A stretch of 61,016 nt of DNA, the filler included, from Basidioascus undulatus (Eukaryota): NCBI GenBank assembly GCA_000826855.1. It is 7 parts of 7 records of this genome, joined end to end, with 100 filler letters (N's around TTAATTAATTAA, not from the genome) between each part and the next. Parts side by side here need not be neighbours in the genome. Positions count along the whole stretch, not along the records: positions 1 to 26,403 come from JTLS01000189.1; 6 more parts are not named here. One strand, 5' to 3'. The position numbers were made by a program, and so were the translations under genes. Shown here one piece after another: positions 1 through 19,998 of this stretch. Position 1 is the stretch's first letter, and every line of letters starts with the position of its first letter. The notes under the pieces were generated by a model. That model was not told the origin of the DNA and did not search any database. It saw nothing but the letters and a program-made list of their open reading frames with translations.

Positions 1-1825
1 GGGTGGCGTCAGAAGGGGAGGTACAGGGGGAGGACGGGAGAGGGATGAGGGGAGCGAAGGAGGGAGGGAAGACGGAGGGAGAGGAGGAAGGGGAAAAGAA
101 GGCGGAGGGGAAGAAGAGGGCGAGGGGCGATGGGGAGGTGAAGGCGGCTGATGCGGAGGAGGAAGGGGGGCTGAGGAGGTCGAGGAGGAAGAGGAAGACT
201 GGGTGAGGCTGAGTCTACGGGACAATGATGCGCTGCTTCTTGGGGCCGGGGGGAGGAATTTTGGGTGACTGTGCTGTGGCTGGGTGGGTGGACGCTGGAC
301 GTTTTTTTTGCTGCTGGTGTATTTTTTGGGCTACAGTACGCTTTTCCGTGCGGCTCCTTCGGCTGGGCGGCATGGGCTTGTACACTCCGTCTGAATCGAA
401 CAAAGTGTCGGGGAGGCATTCCGTTGTTCGCTGCGAGGCACTGGATGAGCAAGTAACCACCAGTGCGGCAGCCTAGAGGAGGTGGGCGTCTCCGTCTTGA
501 ACTGATATGGAGATTGCAACGCTCGCAGTGTTTCTGGATAGCTTGCAGCTGGGCCAGTTAGCTGGATAACGTCTTGGTGCTGGGGCGCTGGGGCTTCGCG
601 GCCTCCATGCAAAAGCTGGTGTTGCACGACACACGACATGCGTCTTGTTCCGGCTGTTGCGAAGATGGGCTTATTCCTTCCTTTGCGTTCGGAGGGATCT
701 TTCAATCAGCAACACGGCAGCCTGAGCCCTGAAGCAAATTTGCAGGACAAGTCTTGCCGACTGCGGGCCGGAAGGTAGCACATGGACCTGCCAGACTCTT
801 TTCTGGCATTTCAGAACCTTTGAGGGAGATTTAATTACCTTTTCCCGTGGTACATATGTTACGGAATGGGACGGGGGATTCGTAGAGGCTGGCAGCCGCA
901 GGCTGCGTGCTGCTGGCTGCACACTGCCGCGAATGGGTCAGAAGTGTCCAGCTAACACAAGAATACCAGGCACCCGAGTTCCGTTTTTGATGGTTTTCTG
1001 AAAGTTCTATAGAGCGCTGGGGGGACTCGCAATTTCTTATGCCACTTCAGTTCTCGTAGTGAGACGAGCTCTTGAACTGAAGTAGTCCGTTGCATCCGAC
1101 ATGTTTGGTCCCCTTACGCGTCCGATCAGAGATCCCTTGGGCCCTAGCCTTCCCCTCGACCTTCGGCTCAGGCAGTTAGTAGTACCGCCTTTGCCTGCAC
1201 GTCTGCGAAACTGCGAAAGTCGAGTTTCAAAGCCTGCTTGGCGTGCGAGCGGACTATTCGTAGCATCATCGTCTACTCGGCGGCCATACATGAACAAGGC
1301 CCATGCGCTGTGTTCAGAGTTTTCTTGACTCCCGACAAAACTCAATAGCGGTAACAGAACGTCCGACTACCACTGGACTCGAAGTGCGAGAGGGACGGGC
1401 AAGTTTCTTGGGAGCCACACCGGTATAGCGTATGAATGGAATGCAAACATCAGTGTCAACTATTGGCATTTGGATCCGAAGAAATTGAAAAGAAGTGCTA
1501 AGCGAGGCAGCCGAACTGCCATGGAAGGCAGGGAGGGATGAGGGAGGTGCGCGAGCGGCGCACTGGTCATGGGGTCAAGGTGCGGACACCTCGTCCACGA
1601 CGGGCCATATGCCATCCACATGCTCTTCGACGCAGGAAGCTTGGGTTCTTTGGTTATTTTGAAGGCACTGGAGGAGGAAGGTTGTTCCCTTCAGGTCTGT
1701 GTCTGTCAGGCGCAACTTTCGCAGCATGCCGCGTGAGCTGCACAGACTGGCTGTGAGTGCTCCGCCTGCAATGTTTCGAGCTCAGGGACGAGAAGCCAAT
1801 GAAGTATACCAATGTATGTTTTCGG

Positions 1826-3360
1826 ATTTTCACGTTCTTCGAGGCGTACTGCGGTGCGGGTGGAACAGCTCGAGGCAAGTACGCAGATACTGTGCCCAAG
1901 TGCTACCAGAAGTTGATCTTTCCTAACAGTCTACAAGATGGCGGGCTTCGACATCATCGGCGACGTGGATTCCGATCACGCCGCTGTCGATGCCTTCGAG
2001 GCGAGTGAAGTCTCTGTTGAACACGCGCGAGCCTCGTGCTGACAAGGCCATCGGAGTCTGCAGAAAAATTTCTCGGACGTGCAGACGCACGCCTGCAAGG
2101 TCAAGGACTTCGTCACCGCGCTGAAGACCGGCGAGCAAGTCGCGGACGGTTCCGTTGACGTTCTCTCGGTCTCGACGCCATATCAGGGATTTTCAAAGGT
2201 CAACACCACGGTTCGTGAATCCGCCGATTGAATCCGCCGATCCTTAGGGGATGTAGTACCGATTTGCTAGGCATTTACAGGGAAAGGAGGAGAACAAGAC
2301 GGCGAAGAGTGAGCAGATTGAATCATCCGCCTTCGTGCTTTGACTTACGCTTCTGCTGGCTGTGGTGAAGGAACGAGATCCTCCGAGTCGGCGAGCTGCT
2401 TGAGACCCTCCATCCGACGGTTCTCTTCTTCGAAACCGTGTGTGCTGTGATGGCTTTCCGGCTGACCGTTTTCGCCGCCATCAGGACCCCAAAGCTCAGC
2501 GCCTACATATGAGTTGAAGAAATGTCCTTCGGCACGCAGCTCGAGTTGAGCCTTGTGAATCTCTTCAGGGAGAGGTTGCTGCGTCTGATCCTCGAGATGG
2601 GCTACTCCGTCGCCTTCACCTCGTGCGTATCTACCTGTACTCGCTTCTCAGAATTCTCCGATAGCTGAAATGTCTGCGCACGGCGTGAGGACCTGTCAGC
2701 AAGCTTCACGAAGCGCAGCAGTGGGTCGAAGAGGCCGCGCGACAATCACTCACTTGACCTGCTTGTACTGCTTCACCGGCGTCCCAGCGAACTTATGCTC
2801 GTCCGGGAAGCCTTGCATGCGGGTCAGTTTCCCGGACGGTAAGTTTGTCGCCTCAACCTTTCGCTTGAATGTCAGCGGCCGTCACTGGTGGAACGAGCGG
2901 CCGTCGGAAAGAGTCACGACGCAGAGGGACTGCCCCTTCCACCAGTTCTTCCACCTCGTCACGGTGTAGTCGCCGATGTTGCGGTTGACGCGACGCGGGT
3001 TCTTCGGGTCTGCGAGGCGCTCGGCGTACTCGGACCGCGCTGGAGCATCCTCTGGGATGAGGGCGTTGCCCGAACGGTTCTCTCGTCCCGCGGACGCGGC
3101 CCATGCAAGTCCCTGATCGCGTGGCCGACGGTGGTACGCTTCTCCTTGGACGGCTTGGCGAAGGCCGGCAGTGGAGATCCGGGGCGCGAGGCGATGAGAA
3201 AGAGCGGCTTCCGGTTTTGCGGGATCTGGTAATCAGCCGCATCGAGGCTGAGAGATTCTTGCCTGAATTTCCCATCTTTCACATTCTGATCCACTTCCCG
3301 CTTGCAGGTACCACCTCTTCTGGCCCAACAACTGGCGGGCCCGATCAAGGCCAGGCCATC
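1826..3360 (+). pseudogene. DNA (cytosine-5)-methyltransferase (DNMT1/Masc-like catalytic domain), internally inverted and degenerate
   Basis: Plus-strand exons give motif I FFEAYCGAGG (~1835-1865), MAGFDIIGDVDSD, motif IV VDVLSVSTPYQGFSKVN (PC replaced by PY, TAT at 2181-2183), motif VI VLFFETV (ETV at 2432-2440), motif VII LILEMGYSV (~2586-2611) and the end of motif X VPPLLAQQLAGPI (from 3308). Motifs VIII to X are on the minus strand between them. The 5' end was not resolved. Confidence 0.85.
2652..3269 (-). other. Inverted internal segment of the C5-methyltransferase gene (motif VIII, TRD, motif IX, start of motif X)
   Basis: The minus strand reads LDAADYQIPQNRKPLFLIASRPGSPLP...TTVGHAIRDL from 3247 downward, and LTVRE/(+1)/LTRMQGFPDEHKFAGTPVKQYKQV at 2843-2755. 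It is bounded by AATTC (2652-2656) and GAATT (3265-3269). Breakpoint positions are inferred. Confidence 0.8.
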
Positions 3361-4312
3361 CTCCTCTCTCTGCAAGCACGCTCGAATCCGCCGCTCGCGG
3401 CAAACACTGCCTCCCCTTCTTCGTCTTCCTCCACCGCACCCGGCCCCTGCCCGCCCTCTTCCGACTCTTCGGCGCCCCCCTCTCCGAGCCTTCCTCCCAA
3501 GATGCAGCTCCCGAGACCGGATACCCTCTCCCGCCCGACCAAACGCTCGGTGCCCTCTCGCCTCGAGTCCCTTTCGAAACGAACTGCTTTGGCACCGTCT
3601 ACTGGCGCGCCCTCCGAGCCGCGGCACGCGCCACATCGAACGCCTGCGCGGAAGGCGCCCGCGGCGAACGAAACGTTTCCTTCGAAACCGTCGAACAACC
3701 GCCTCCAGCCGCCCCGCGTGCACGAACGGGTCACGCCGACGACGACGGTGTACCACCGCGCCCAGTGAATGCGACACCGGAGAAGACCTTGACGGAGCTG
3801 TGGAGACGAAGGTGAAGACGCCTGGATGGAGAGAGCAGCAGGCGAAGCGGGAAGAGCAGAAGTCCGCAAAAGGCGCGGTGAAGTGAGGAGGGAAGGACTC
3901 GCCGTTCTTTCTTTTCGTGTTTCTTATTATTCGCTGTTGTGTTTCTTGTTTCTTAGGGCGCATCATACCCGAATCTCGCATTGACTCTGATCGGTTGCGC
4001 CTGTCCCGTGAAAGCTCTGACGCAGCCAGCACACAGCGTAAAGCACAATCTGTCCTTTCCTTTGAAATAACTTTAATCTGGGTTTCAGGCAGTCTCGTAG
4101 TCTCGTCACGGAGCTGAGGTAGAAGGACGATGCCAACCGATGCTGTTAGTCCTCTTTTGCGGCAAGATTCCGCTGGATTGTTAAGGTGCGACACTGCCGG
4201 AGTGTCCGGGCCGGGCAATGACCCAATCTGGCAGCTCCGCATGGTCGAGCATCTTCTCCCACCCCTCTTCTCCTCGCAGCACCGAAACATATCCATCACC
4301 TAGCAGCACAAG

Positions 4313-15330: not shown

Positions 15331-18300
15331 TTAGTCCTGGCGATCAAACGCAAGATTAGCTTTTATCGCTGCAATATGGTGCTGGAGGGAACGTACGCTC
15401 TCGGTGTCCGGCTCGCGAGGCGCACCGGTAGAGTCGCTGAGCCACTTGAGCTTGCGAGCCGCGCGACGCGCTTCTTGGGCTGTACAGCGGCGAAAGGACG
15501 TCAGTGCCGGCGATCGGATGTGAATGAACGAGCAAAGGTTGTGCGCACCCTTGATCTCGTTACGGGTCTGAAGAGAGTGGCAACCACAATGCGTCAGTCA
15601 GAACACCCACGCCAACACCCGGATCGCTCTTCAGCTCAATCATACCTTCTTCTTCTTCTTCCTGGCCACGGGAGGCGTAGAAGCGCCGTCCTCGGCGGCG
15701 GAGTTGGCGGCGCTGTTCTGGTTGGAGGCGGCACGGGAAGCGGCGCGAGACGCGGCGCGAGAGCCGGTCTTGGGGGTCTTGGCCTCCTGCTCTCCCACTC
15801 AAGTCAGCGTCTGTAGATTCATAAAAAGCAGAATTGCAGTCGACGTACCGGAGCGTCCTCGATTTGAGTGATCTTGCCCTCCTGCGTGAGAACACCGGCC
15901 TGCAAACCAAGTCGTCAGCTTTCAACATTTGGAGGTTGTAAATGATCGTCTCACATCGACGTTCCAGATCTGAGGTGAACGTCAAGCACCCAATGTCAGC
16001 TCTTAACTGGACAGGCTAGATTACCCGCAACGCGTACCTCAGGGCAGACGGCGTGCACCTATTGATCGTTGCATACATCAGCACCTGTTCGTCTTATGGC
16101 AGGCTTGCGAGAGAACGTACAAACTCGAGGTTGTGAGAGATGACACAAACGGCACCGGTCCACTCGTTGATGGCCGTGGCGAGACCACCGACGGATTCGC
16201 GGTCCAAGAACTGTAGGGAAAAAAATCGATGAGCTGGGATGAAGTGGTCGCGAATAAACGCATGAACGAACGTTGGTTGGCTCTGCGCAAGGAAGTGGCG
16301 CCGTCAGCGACTGGTTCGAACAAGGATTATGACAGCGTGAGGAGGCTCACCGTCGAGAATGAGGATCTGCGGGTTGTTGTACATGGCCGCACCAATGACG
16401 ACCTTGACCTTCTGACCACCCGAAAGACCAGCTGCGAGCACGAGCGTCCGATCGGGTCAGCCTCCGAGCTTTTCCTCTCCGAACCACAACCGCAAAGAGG
16501 ACGTACAGATCTCGTTGTACTGCGCAATGTCGCCGTCCAAACCCAAGTCCTCGAGCATCTTCCGGATGTTGTCGGCCTTGTTCTCCTTCTGGCCCGCACC
16601 CTCGCGCGACGCCTCAAGGTCGTCGAACTGCTGCACGAGCTTCGTGAAGCCGTGCTCAATGAGGTCCTCGCGGGGCATCCAGGTGTTGTACTAGGGGTTG
16701 AAAGAAGCATCAGCGATTGGACGGGCGTGGTGATCCGCAGCGCGGATTGAACGCACCCGGTGGTCCAGACCCCGCCACTTGATCTCGTACTGGTAGCTCT
16801 TCTTCAGCTTCTGACGACCTGCGCACAGTGAACAGTCAGCGCCATGCGCAGCGAGTAATATCAGCGAAGCTTAAGGCTACGCACCGATGATGAACTCGAC
16901 CTTGCGCTTCTCGCCAGTCTTGCCGACAATCTCCTTCTCCATCAACGCCGCCTCCTCGGCGGTCATCTTGCGCGACGCCTTCTCCGTCACCTCGCGGTCG
17001 TGACCATCCTGGTAACGCCACTGGATGTACTGGATGGGGGTCTTCTCGAGATGTTGCTCAATCTGCAAAGTCAAACCTTAAGTCAGCGTAAACTTCTACG
17101 AAGGGTGGCTAAAGAGGGGAGACATACGTGGTGGAACGCATGCTGCGCCACGTAACCGACACGCAAGTTCGGGTGCTTGTAGACGGACCCGCTTTGCGGG
17201 ATCGTCTCGCCCGTGATGAGCTTGATGAGCGTCGACTTGCCAGCGCCGTTCGGGCCGAGGATGCCGACGCGGGACGAGAGCGACAGCGCGCACGAGACGC
17301 TGTTGAGCTGCGGCCTGGGCGTGCCCGGGTACTGGAACACACAGTCCTTGAGCTTCATGATGGCGCGCGTGTTGGAGCGGACGCCCATGAGTGAGCCAGG
17401 GGGAGGGAAGGAGAACCTGAAGGTACGGAGCGTCAGTGGAGCTGTATAGGAAGATCAATTCCAAAAGAGAGAGAACGCACTTGATGGTGGTCGCCTCGAG
17501 AGTGTAGTACGCTTGCGCAGCCGGGACCTTCGCGACGAACTGGGAGAGGTTGCCCTTGTAGTAGACGAGCTAGGAAAGGCAGCCCCGTCAGCGGCTGTCT
17601 GCAAGTAACAATCCATGGCCAGCAGACACGTACCCGCTTGTCCTCGTAGTGCATGATGTCCGTGCAGACCTTGTCGAGGAAGCCGGAGTCGTGAGAGACG
17701 GTGAGAATGGTCGTGTTGTTGCTGACGAGCCAGTTCTCGAGCCAGGCGACGGATTGCACGTCGAGGTGGTTAGTCGGCTCGTCGAGGAGGAGGACGTCGG
17801 CGCCGACGAGCATCGCACGGGCGAGCTCGAGCTGAAGCACGCGGTCGGTGATGTCAGTCCCTGTGCGGCGCCAAGCGAACGCGTCAAAGTAGACGGAGAC
17901 TAAACGAACCTTCATCTTCCAACCACCCGAGAGACTGCCGACCTGGTCCTGCTGCTTCTCGTCCGAGAAGCCGACGGACAGCAGAGCTTCGGCAATCTTG
18001 GAGCGAGGAGTGTTAACGAGGTTGGGGTCTGCAACAACGCAGGTCTCGTCAGTTGGAATGGCTAGAGGGGCATCTTGGGTCTGACTCACCGGCAGCGATG
18101 AAATCGATGATGGATAGCGAGGTGTCCTCGCCCTGGAGCGCGTGCTCGACCATGATCGTCCGGAGCTTGTCCTGCGGCGGGAAGCCCTCGACCTACGATA
18201 TCACACGAGACCAATCCGAATTCAGCTCGCATACCCTTCCACCGATTCCAACAGGGTCAAAACGTACCTTTCCGTCCCGGATAGCCTTGAGCAGGGTACT

Positions 18301-19998
18301 CTTGCCCTTGCCGTTTCCAGCGCAAACACCGTACCGGCGCCCGCGGACGATGCGCAGGCGGGTGTGATTGAGAAGGAGGAGACCGCCGTACGCGAGCGAG
18401 AAGACGAGGTTGCAGAGCTCCTCGCCGTCGTCCTCGTACTCCTCCGCCGATTGCGCGTTGGCACGCTGCCAGCAGAGTAACCGCGTTTAGCTCCGCGCTC
18501 CCACACAACCGACTGATGTACCACCGGACTGACCTGGTCGACCTCCAAGAAGATATCCAACACCTCCTTCCCGACGGCCTTGCCCTCCTCGCGCCCGCCC
18601 TGCAGGAAGTGCGCGACGTACGGAGCAATGACGACGTCGACCCAACGCTTCTCGTCAAAGTCGCGCTCGTACGCCAAGTCGGCCGCCATCTCCGCGACGT
18701 ATGCGGTGCTGGTCGCGATGACCGAGTCCTGCTCGATGGACGCGGCAGGGGAGACAACCTTGTACTTGTCGGACGACAGGACGCGGTGGAGCACGCCGGC
18801 AGCGGTGACGACCTCCGCGCCGCGGGAGCGGGTCGTGGCGACCGAGGTGGAGGAGGCGCCGGCGGAGAGGAGGATGGAGAGGGTCGTCGCGGCGAATGCG
18901 CGGATCTCGGGGAACGCGGCGTTCTCCTTGATGGACTGGACGCTCGGGACGAGCTCGCCGAGGTAGCGAGCCGCGACCTGCGGGTCACGCACGAGCTTGA
19001 CCAGGTTACCGAGGACGATGACGGTCATGCGGATCGTCTCCATGCTCTTCTCCTTGAGCGCGCGGGTGAGGAGGGGGACGAGCACGGCGAGGACGGGACC
19101 GGTGACCTCGGCGACGAAGGTGGTGGAGGAGAGGGCCTTGACGAGGGCGGGAACGTTGGAAGGGGACGCCATGGACGCCACGAGCGCAGGGACATGCTTC
19201 GCGATGTCCGGGTTCTGAAGGAGCGCGCAAATGTCCCGAGCGCACTTCTTCGCAGCCGTGGAGACCTGACCAAGACCATTGATCAGAATCCGCTGCCAGT
19301 CACCTAGCCGAGCTTGAGAAAAAGACATACCTCAGACTTAGTGTCGTGCATGGCCGACTCGAGGCGGGGGACGATCTCGCCGAGCATCTCTCCCATCCGA
19401 TTCCTCCAATCCTCCCCGCGCTTGACAAGTCCACCGAGAACGACGAGCGCCCCGCGCTTGGTCTGCCATTTTGCACCTCCGTCAAGGCACTCCCAGAGCG
19501 TGGCGAGGAGGGCGCGGAGGACCTCGGCGGGGACGAGGGCGACGAGCTCGTCCGCCGCGGCCTGGGCGGCCTCGCGCACGACGTCGCCCTTGTCGGAGAG
19601 GAGGTCGAGGAAGATGGGGAGGAGCGGGAGGAAGAAGGGCTCGACACCGCCGATGGTCCGCGCGCGGCGGAAGAGGGACGAGAAGCCCACGCACGCAGAC
19701 TCGCGCTCGTACCCTGACTTTTTGTTGGTGGCGGCACTGCGGAGGCTGGCGATGATGCCTTGAGACCTGAGAAGCGTGCATGGGAATCCCTTGTCAGCTT
19801 GAGATGGTGATCCTTAACCTAAAGGAGGAATACGTACTCGAGCGAGCGAATGCCGGTCTTTTCAACGTGGGCGGCGAGGCGCTCGGCCTCGCGCCTGCAG
19901 TCCGAGGCGGTGGGCGCCTTGAGGAGGGCGGCGATGATGTCCTGGGGGCCGCCCTCGCCGCCAGAAATGGAAAGGTCCGCGAGACTGATGGGCGACAT
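15331..19998 (-). CDS. NEW1: eEF3-family ABC-F ATPase (New1/Elf1-like): HEAT repeats, two ABC domains, chromodomain insert
   Basis: HEAT region (KWQTKRGAL, ALSSTTFVAEV), Walker A GPNGAGKSTLIK, signature LSGGWKMK, LLLDEPTNHLD, chromo-like GRQKLKKSYQYEIKWRGL, and a basic C-terminal ARRAARKLKWLSD...PREPDTE tail typical of the New1/Elf1 branch. Confidence 0.88.

Follow-up and report, generated by a model that had tools for sequence, protein, structure and literature searches.

Evidence for an inversion of an exon block, probably fixed, within a probably decaying DNA methyltransferase-like gene of Basidioascus undulatus

A region that resembles a gene and shows the hallmarks of C5 cytosine DNA methyltransferases (DNMTs) was examined at positions 1799 to ~3886 of a 61,016-nucleotide stretch of DNA (filler included; hereafter the window) from Basidioascus undulatus (GenBank assembly GCA_000826855.1), in the part of the window that derives from JTLS01000189.1. 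In this DNMT-like gene the collinearity of motifs I to X in a single reading direction was found to be absent. Instead, one C5-DNA-methyltransferase domain is spread over two strands, with motifs I, IV, VI and VII on the plus strand, motif VIII, the target-recognition domain (TRD), motif IX and the beginning of motif X on the minus strand, and the end of motif X on the plus strand again (Table 1). This arrangement had been proposed in an earlier inspection of the DNA (the sequence-only reading) and was confirmed by the ranges matched in a profile hidden Markov model (HMM): the plus strand at 1799-2622 covers profile positions 12-153, the minus strand from 3247 down to 2756 covers positions 156-328, and the plus strand from 3308 covers positions 332-346. 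The ranges of the plus and minus pieces are complementary, without overlap or duplication. Also borne out were the splice signals named in that reading, a donor GTGCGT at 2623 after GYSVAFT and an acceptor CAG at 3305-3307 before VPPLLAQQLAG. On the minus strand, the reading from 3247 down begins with C followed by LDAADYQIPQNRKPLFLIAS...TTVGHAIRDL (motif VIII), and the motif IX/X piece RMQGFPDEHKFAGTPVKQYKQV stops at 2756, after which a donor GTGAGT is found at 2753-2748.

Table 1. Features of the DNMT-like gene and of its neighbors, in window coordinates.
Feature	Position	Strand	Remarks
N-terminal half of the DNMT-like gene	1799..2622	+	candidate ATG 1799; several short introns; profile 12-127/153, 58.9 bits
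Motif I, FFEAYCGAGGTARG	1835-1876	+	frame reading also MKYTNVCFRIFTFFEAYCGAGGTARG, then YKMAGFDIIGDVDSDHAAVDAFE
Motif IV region, KNFSDV...VDVLSVSTPYQGFSKVNTT	2064-2210	+	TPYQGFS; PYQ for PCQ; Tyr codon TAT 2181-2183
Motif VI, NEILRVGELLETLHPTVLFFETV	2426-2440	+	reads FFETV
Motif VII, ...RERLLRLILEMGYSVAFT + TC (...LEMGYSVAFT)	end 2622	+	followed by donor GTGCGT 2623-2628
5' part of left-breakpoint intron	2623..2651	+	donor GTGCGT 2623-2628; breakpoint within about 2646-2658
Inverted block, bounds of the sequence-only reading	2652..3269	-	618 bp; 2648-3289 (642 bp) and 2650-3307 (658 bp) equally good
Motif VIII exon, (S)LDAADYQIPQNRKPLFLIASRPGSPLPAFAKPSKEKRTTVGHAIRDLHGP	3097..3247	-	acceptor TCTCAG 3253-3248; PF00145 24.1 bits; HMM built here E 3e-13
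Target-recognition region, DAPARSEYAERL...VVTLSDGRSFHQ	2885..3049	-	frame differs from motif VIII
In-frame TGA (FHQ, stop, RPLT) between TRD and motif IX	2882..2884	-	probably a nonsense mutation
Motif IX and start of motif X, RPLTFKRKVEATNLPSGKLTRMQGFPDEHKFAGTPVKQYKQV	2756..2881	-	profile 305-328, E 1.2e-3
Intron-like stretch after YKQV	2652..2753	-	GTGAGT 2753-2748, CTGAC, CAG; holds codons GAG AAT TCT (ENS, 2658-2650)
3' intron end	3270..3307	+	74% C+T; CTGAT 3286-3290; acceptor CAG 3305-3307; right breakpoint in 3248-3307
Last exon	3308..3886	+	end of motif X, VPPLLAQQLAG; Pro/Ser/Arg-rich open frame to TGA 3884-3886; profile 332-346
Short-chain dehydrogenase (adh_short)	4.3-5.8 kb		neighbor of the DNMT-like gene, from 4314 onward
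Elongation factor 3 gene	17100-19820 (17-20 kb)	-	HEAT_EF3_N, HEAT_EF3_GNC1, ABC_tran

The HMM was built from 40 full-length PF00145 proteins and searched against 1683 stop-to-stop pieces from the six frames of the whole window. By this approach, matches were detected on the minus strand at 3297..3058 (profile 139-219, E 3e-13) and 2827..2756 (profile 305-328, E 1.2e-3) and on the plus strand at 2058..2207 (profile 45-94, E 1.3e-3) and 1932..2015 (profile 24-51, E 0.75). Five further rows were weak (E 1.2-9.1), namely the motif VI of this gene (plus strand, 2393-2458) and four near 20.3, 34.0, 38.9 and 50.4 kb, and no second DNMT piece better than E 1 was found elsewhere among the 1683 pieces. 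Weaker local matches were obtained for motif I (1841-1876), motif VI (2393-2458), motif VII (2573-2617) and the tail (3308-3361, profile 332-349). The minus-strand piece (2962-3297) passed the Pfam gathering score of PF00145 by itself (24.1 bits versus 22, E 2.8e-5, profile 142-206); the remaining pieces, too short for Pfam, were under this cut-off.

Conceptual proteins were joined by coordinates and scored with the same HMM. The plus exons only and the minus exons only scored 58.9 and 57.7 bits, respectively, and the plus exons followed by the tail, which is the present order, scored 61.1 bits. With the block turned back in silico, as the sequence-only reading had suggested, a single collinear domain was recovered that scored 142.1-155.5 bits, the 142.1-bit version running over profile positions 12-346. 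The plus-strand end ...GYSVAFTS joined to LDAADY... gave 55.6 bits versus 43.9 for LDAADY... alone, whereas LDAADY... with its own contiguous minus-strand upstream sequence gave 45.2 bits. The plus exon is the natural neighbor of LDAADY because it adds 11.7 bits to the score, compared to 1.3 for the minus-strand upstream sequence; two complete convergent methyltransferase genes are therefore refuted, and the single-gene view of the sequence-only reading is upheld.

The minus-strand piece could also be viewed as part of a second DNMT copy, placed here by a partial inverted duplication or an insertion, such that the locus would hold two independent fragments. A right junction that is not cleanly rebuildable and a change of frame inside the minus-strand block are in keeping with this view. 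By contrast, the profile ranges 12-153, 156-328 and 332-346 complement one another with no overlap, the split codon (TC, then C) and the spacing from GYSVAFTS to LDAADY fit the profile (the 11.7 bits above), and splice signals face each other at both junctions, all of which makes an origin from two fragments quite improbable.

Both junctions are bridged by contigs that were assembled separately for each of two DNA runs, one from a study of 2014 and the other from a study of 2025. They span 1500-3581 and 1500-3526 with neither a difference nor a gap; one contig has a length of 14758 nt and a depth of 45, the other a length of 3462 nt and a depth of 18.5. Among the contigs of the two runs no contig break, loose end or alternative joint was detected at 2650 or at 3270-3307, and only the present orientation was seen, contigs being blind to rare variants. 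The sole joint listed in the 3-kb stretch was a splice (4381/4464, 82 nt, GT..AG) in the neighboring dehydrogenase gene, and no repeat able to mislead an assembler was found at the junctions. The sequence-only reading had leaned either to a fixed inversion in a dying gene or to an assembly or amplification chimera, in which the DNA of the organism would be collinear and the inversion would come from library preparation or assembly. The oddity of the gene in other respects, and the fact that the two runs containing this region are flagged as potential sources of the assembly, would suit a chimera; yet this explanation is unlikely, and in our judgment very much so, because contigs of two studies from different years, made with another pipeline, bridge both junctions with 0 differences. 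Of these two leanings, the fixed inversion is the one supported.

Turning back positions 2652-3269 generates a 51-nt GT-AG intron (GTGCGT...TCTCAG) and joins the exons in frame after GYSVAFTS to read YSVAFTSLDAADYQIP, as previously described from the sequence. Two other flips, 2648-3289 and 2650-3307, gave introns of 67 and 87 nt and were no worse at restoring the gene. The pair AATTC...GAATT, formerly taken as the boundary of the block, did not retain this status: it is one of seven inverted 5-mers that are shared, together with one 7-mer (TCAGAAT 2648-2654 / ATTCTGA 3283-3289), by the junction zones 2623-2668 and 3248-3307. This degree of microhomology is at chance level, since of 1514 control pairs with this geometry from the window, a shared 7-mer occurs in 182 and seven or more shared 5-mers in 143. 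A near-palindrome, CTTCTCAGAATTCTCC, centred on GAATTC, is present at the left junction (2643-2658), and its words TCTCAG and AGAAT recur inverted at 3248-3259 and 3283-3289, likewise at chance level by the controls.

The location of the left breakpoint inside the intron after GYSVAFT(S) is well supported. The right breakpoint is probably also inside an intron, within motif X, because GTGAGT is found 2 bases past YKQV on the minus strand and a C+T tract, CTGAT and CAG lie directly before VPPLL on the plus strand. Thus, the proposal that both breakpoints are intronic held for the left side and is only probable for the right side, where the phases mismatch and GN is absent. The triplet of residues ENS, encoded at 2658-2650, was considered as a hidden GNA of motif X and was set aside as a weak alternative only: YKQV+ENS+VPPLL scored 39.0-39.1 bits compared to 25.5-25.6 bits without ENS, and of the 153 local 9-nt words ENS scored best; among control words, however, 314 of 9413 (3.3%) reached at least 39.0 bits. 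Were ENS the real GNA, the right breakpoint would fall in an exon (flip 2650-3307).

Invertible loci of bacterial restriction-modification and methyltransferase systems have inverted repeats, a site-specific recombinase and coexisting orientations. The present locus is similar to such phase-variable methyltransferase loci in that a segment is inverted inside a methyltransferase locus, but none of these three features was found here. No pair of inverted repeats was found around the block; of 273 pairs, the best measured 15-25 nt at 70-87% and were located elsewhere. No recombinase or transposase family was detected near the block in 145 of the 155 stop-to-stop open reading frames of at least 130 aa (E<=1e-5), a scan that split genes could escape; the families found in these frames were adh_short, ABC_tran, EF3 HEAT, FAD_binding_4, FAD-oxidase_C, Peptidase_M48, Svf1 and TruD. 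These results bear on a reversible, intron-anchored on/off switch, by which the block would flip and toggle the gene and which the sequence-only reading had listed among its options. In its favor, a flip back would restore the motif order, given that the two breakpoints probably lie in introns, and short inverted microhomologies are present. However, inverted repeats above chance are lacking, no recombinase was found in the open reading frames scanned, no second orientation was seen among the contigs and joints of the two runs, and the ON state would still be without the catalytic Cys and with a probable stop. A switch of this type is, in our view, scarcely credible. Just as faint is the likelihood of rare, ongoing flips of the block, or of its polymorphism among isolates, by recombination between the microhomologies in the two introns; if this were true, an intron-anchored invertible exon block would for the first time be seen in a fungal methyltransferase-like gene, with a collinear form that is Cys-less and non-catalytic.

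The conceptual protein was found to keep 23 of the 35 conserved columns (at least 90% in the 40 references). In motif IV, the catalytic Cys is lost (PCQ to PYQ, Cys to Tyr). In motif VI, the residues E119, N120 and V121 of ENV are invariant in the 40 reference proteins and the DNMT-like gene reads ETV (Asn to Thr). In motif VIII, QNRRR is replaced by QNRKP (PQNRKP), the second Arg of QxRxR having become Pro, and in motif X the GN between YKQV and VPPLL is missing (Gly to Glu or absent). Further losses include Gly to Gln and Val to Ile before PQ, Asp to His and Gly to Arg in DAIGD, and four positions around motif IX. In the excerpted text of a study of these enzymes (PMC6709928), the Cys of PCQ is described as the nucleophile and the Glu of ENV as protonating N3. 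Turning the block back does not restore the catalytic Cys, the Asn of ENV, one invariant Arg in motif VIII or the Gly-Asn pair in motif X, and a probable premature stop persists.

This stop, the TGA at 2884-2882 on the minus strand, is removed by no GT-AG intron that keeps the sequence to 2900; 12 weak introns (GTGACT, GTCGTG...AAG/GAG) remove it, but at the cost of conserved sequence. Motif VIII and the TRD lie in different frames, and only a GTCCGC intron of 44 or 56 nt, which is weak, would join them; the alternative is a frameshift. The canonical start of motif IX, LTVRE, occurs at about 2843-2826 on the minus strand (in the stretch ~2850-2826) with the right spacing before RMQGFPD and in another frame, the open frame at this site reading NLPSGK; the pattern resembles the outcome of two 1-nt indels that compensate each other. 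An in-frame TGA on the plus strand (2510-2512) was rejected as a lesion and is probably intronic, as a 102-nt GTGTGT...ACGCAG intron (2438-2539) removes it and gives the motif VI-VII spacing of the profile. As judged from the sequence, the gene is probably a pseudogene, or at best a non-catalytic remnant, and neither strand gives it as one protein; its decay is moderate.

Among the runs listed as containing this region, none was an RNA run. An RNA-like run, X3, from the same sample as run X1, carries the spliced joint 4381/4464 at depth 63 and a 378-nt contig at 3500-3877 (depth 9.8), such that a sequence downstream of the broken gene is transcribed. Run X3 has no contig on 1500-3418, and the uncovered part says nothing on expression. 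These data touch on the idea that a non-catalytic gene is still in use, with 2623-3307 serving as one 685-nt intron to yield an N-terminal-half DNMT-like protein with an out-of-frame tail. Along with the RNA-like contig, the intact donor GTGCGT at 2623 and acceptor CAG at 3307 and a plus half that is stop-free and spliceable are compatible with such use. By contrast, the join of 2622 to 3308 shifts the frame off VPPLL, no evidence of that joint was detected, and half of a methyltransferase fold would be unlikely to be stable. We therefore hold continued use of the gene in this form to be improbable.

Relatives of the gene were found to be distant. A phmmer search of 1.84 billion representatives returned 7 matches at E<=1e-3 and 0 at E<=1e-10 (best 3.8e-6), with 35-53% identity over the parts that matched and 38-53% over about 50-90 residues for the nearest ones; five of the six clusters looked up were nameless and one carried the generic JGI label 'DNA (cytosine-5)-methyltransferase 1'. 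The best matches were short PF00145 proteins of 320-530 aa, mostly nameless, one being named as cyanobacterial. In a protein atlas the motif VIII piece was placed with bacterial PF00145 clusters at 0.95, and the TRD piece gave nothing above 0.75. Word-indexed searches with the motif VIII piece and with the read-through of TRD, motif IX and motif X returned no match, a metagenome scan matched 597 pattern stretches of which 0 were confirmed, and a PDB sequence search with the motif VIII piece returned DNMT1 chains only, at E values that are not significant (0.74-0.85). No named RID protein was returned by the sequence searches.

Compared to stand-alone (bacterial-type) PF00145 proteins, all of the ten-motif landmarks are recognizable and the domain begins, with motif I, 13 residues past the candidate ATG, as it does in stand-alone enzymes. 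The DNMT1/Dim-2 and DNMT5 classes are recognized by BAH domains at the N terminus or an SNF2 helicase at the C terminus. The gene differs from these proteins in its non-collinear motifs, several introns of spliceosomal type, a low-complexity tail of ~190 aa and the alteration of PCQ, ENV, QxRxR and GN. In passages of a review (PMC7862722), five eukaryotic DNMT classes are given and none of them is a stand-alone bacterial-type class for fungi. Similarly to Masc1/RID, the gene is fungal and combines a catalytic domain with a C-terminal extension and a non-canonical motif VI. However, RID proteins are described in the same excerpt as above (PMC6709928) as having motif VI in the form EQT or EET and a TRD some 80 aa long. 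Motif VI here is ETV, and the TRD, from LFLIAS to RMQGFPD of the conceptual protein, would have about 100 residues under a gene model that is uncertain. By the published criterion for motif VI, the gene is not RID-like.

Inactivation of a DNMT gene in a fungal lineage has a counterpart in Zymoseptoria tritici, where dim2 was lost, in the account excerpted from PMC8016269, by amplification of the gene and then repeat-induced point mutation (RIP). The present gene differs from that account in having a small inversion with point lesions and no AT-rich RIP signature, the GC content being 52-66% in every 2-kb bin. Intra-chromosomal inversion is the dominant rearrangement in filamentous ascomycetes according to passages of PMC3516569; the inversions described there are mostly multi-gene with breaks between genes, whereas this one is sub-genic (~0.65 kb). 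No report of an inverted exon block in a fungal DNMT gene was found in the literature searched.

Based on the sequence and the contigs, we consider it highly probable that an inversion within an orphan DNMT-like gene became fixed at this locus and that the gene is decaying. This option of the sequence-only reading was found to fit all of the evidence, including the complementary pieces and the lesions at invariant catalytic positions. The ancestor would have been a collinear, intron-bearing C5-DNA-methyltransferase-like gene with a stand-alone catalytic domain and a low-complexity tail. A segment of ~620-660 bp, with motif VIII, the TRD, motif IX and the start of motif X, would then have been inverted, with the left break in the intron after GYSVAFT(S) and the right break most likely in the intron inside motif X, and subsequently fixed as far as the data show. 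The rearrangement would have been a one-off outcome of double-strand-break repair or of a template switch or replication error, with no dedicated machinery. We infer that a single event accounts for this history and that the function of the gene was lost.

Several points weigh against this interpretation. The right junction cannot be rebuilt, its donor being of phase 2 and its acceptor of phase 0, with GN[AS] missing, and the sequence-only reading had already found that the GNA piece resisted reconstruction and had ranked this second junction as less certain. No orthologue showing the ancestral state was found. Both DNA runs may represent the assembled strain, such that the fixation may concern this strain rather than the species; in addition, contigs drop rare variants, such that the opposite orientation at a low level is compatible with the contig data. 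The plus half can be spliced stop-free by GT-AG introns, and splice signals are well kept, such that decay is not advanced, and the 23 of 35 conserved columns are no worse than the two weakest references (21/32 and 22/32). Finally, the changes at catalytic positions could be older than the inversion, as they would be in a DNMT-like protein devoid of catalysis, and need not then reflect decay.

On this interpretation, the locus is a read-supported case of a sub-genic inversion in a eukaryotic gene, one of whose breakpoints, and probably the other as well, is intronic. It would show that an inversion of small size is able to kill a gene, or to complete its loss, yet keep every exon recognizable. 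A stand-alone bacterial-type DNMT-like gene with introns, located among fungal housekeeping genes (EF3, Svf1 and TruD), would also add slightly to the record of how cytosine methyltransferases have been patchily gained and lost among fungi. No new mechanism is implied. At this site, automated annotation is likely to yield two or three fragments with no link to one another, and the practical use of the result is a correct annotation of the pseudogene.

The tail of the gene had no Pfam match (3290-3886). Part of it is repeated at other places in the genome, with other contigs of both DNA runs matching 3504-3581 (3 differences) and 3564-3686 (9 differences) and then diverging; no Rfam family or tRNA was found in this repeat (3504-3686). 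Rfam and tRNA scans of the window likewise matched nothing. In addition to the short-chain dehydrogenase and elongation factor 3 genes, the latter of which, if a largely fungal marker, would support a fungal origin of the window, the window was found to hold housekeeping genes for an FAD-linked oxidase (FAD_binding_4, FAD-oxidase_C), Peptidase_M48, Svf1 and TruD. The GC content of the window is 58% overall. At its start (1-230) the window is purine-rich and of low complexity (GGA/GAG type), with every frame open on both strands.

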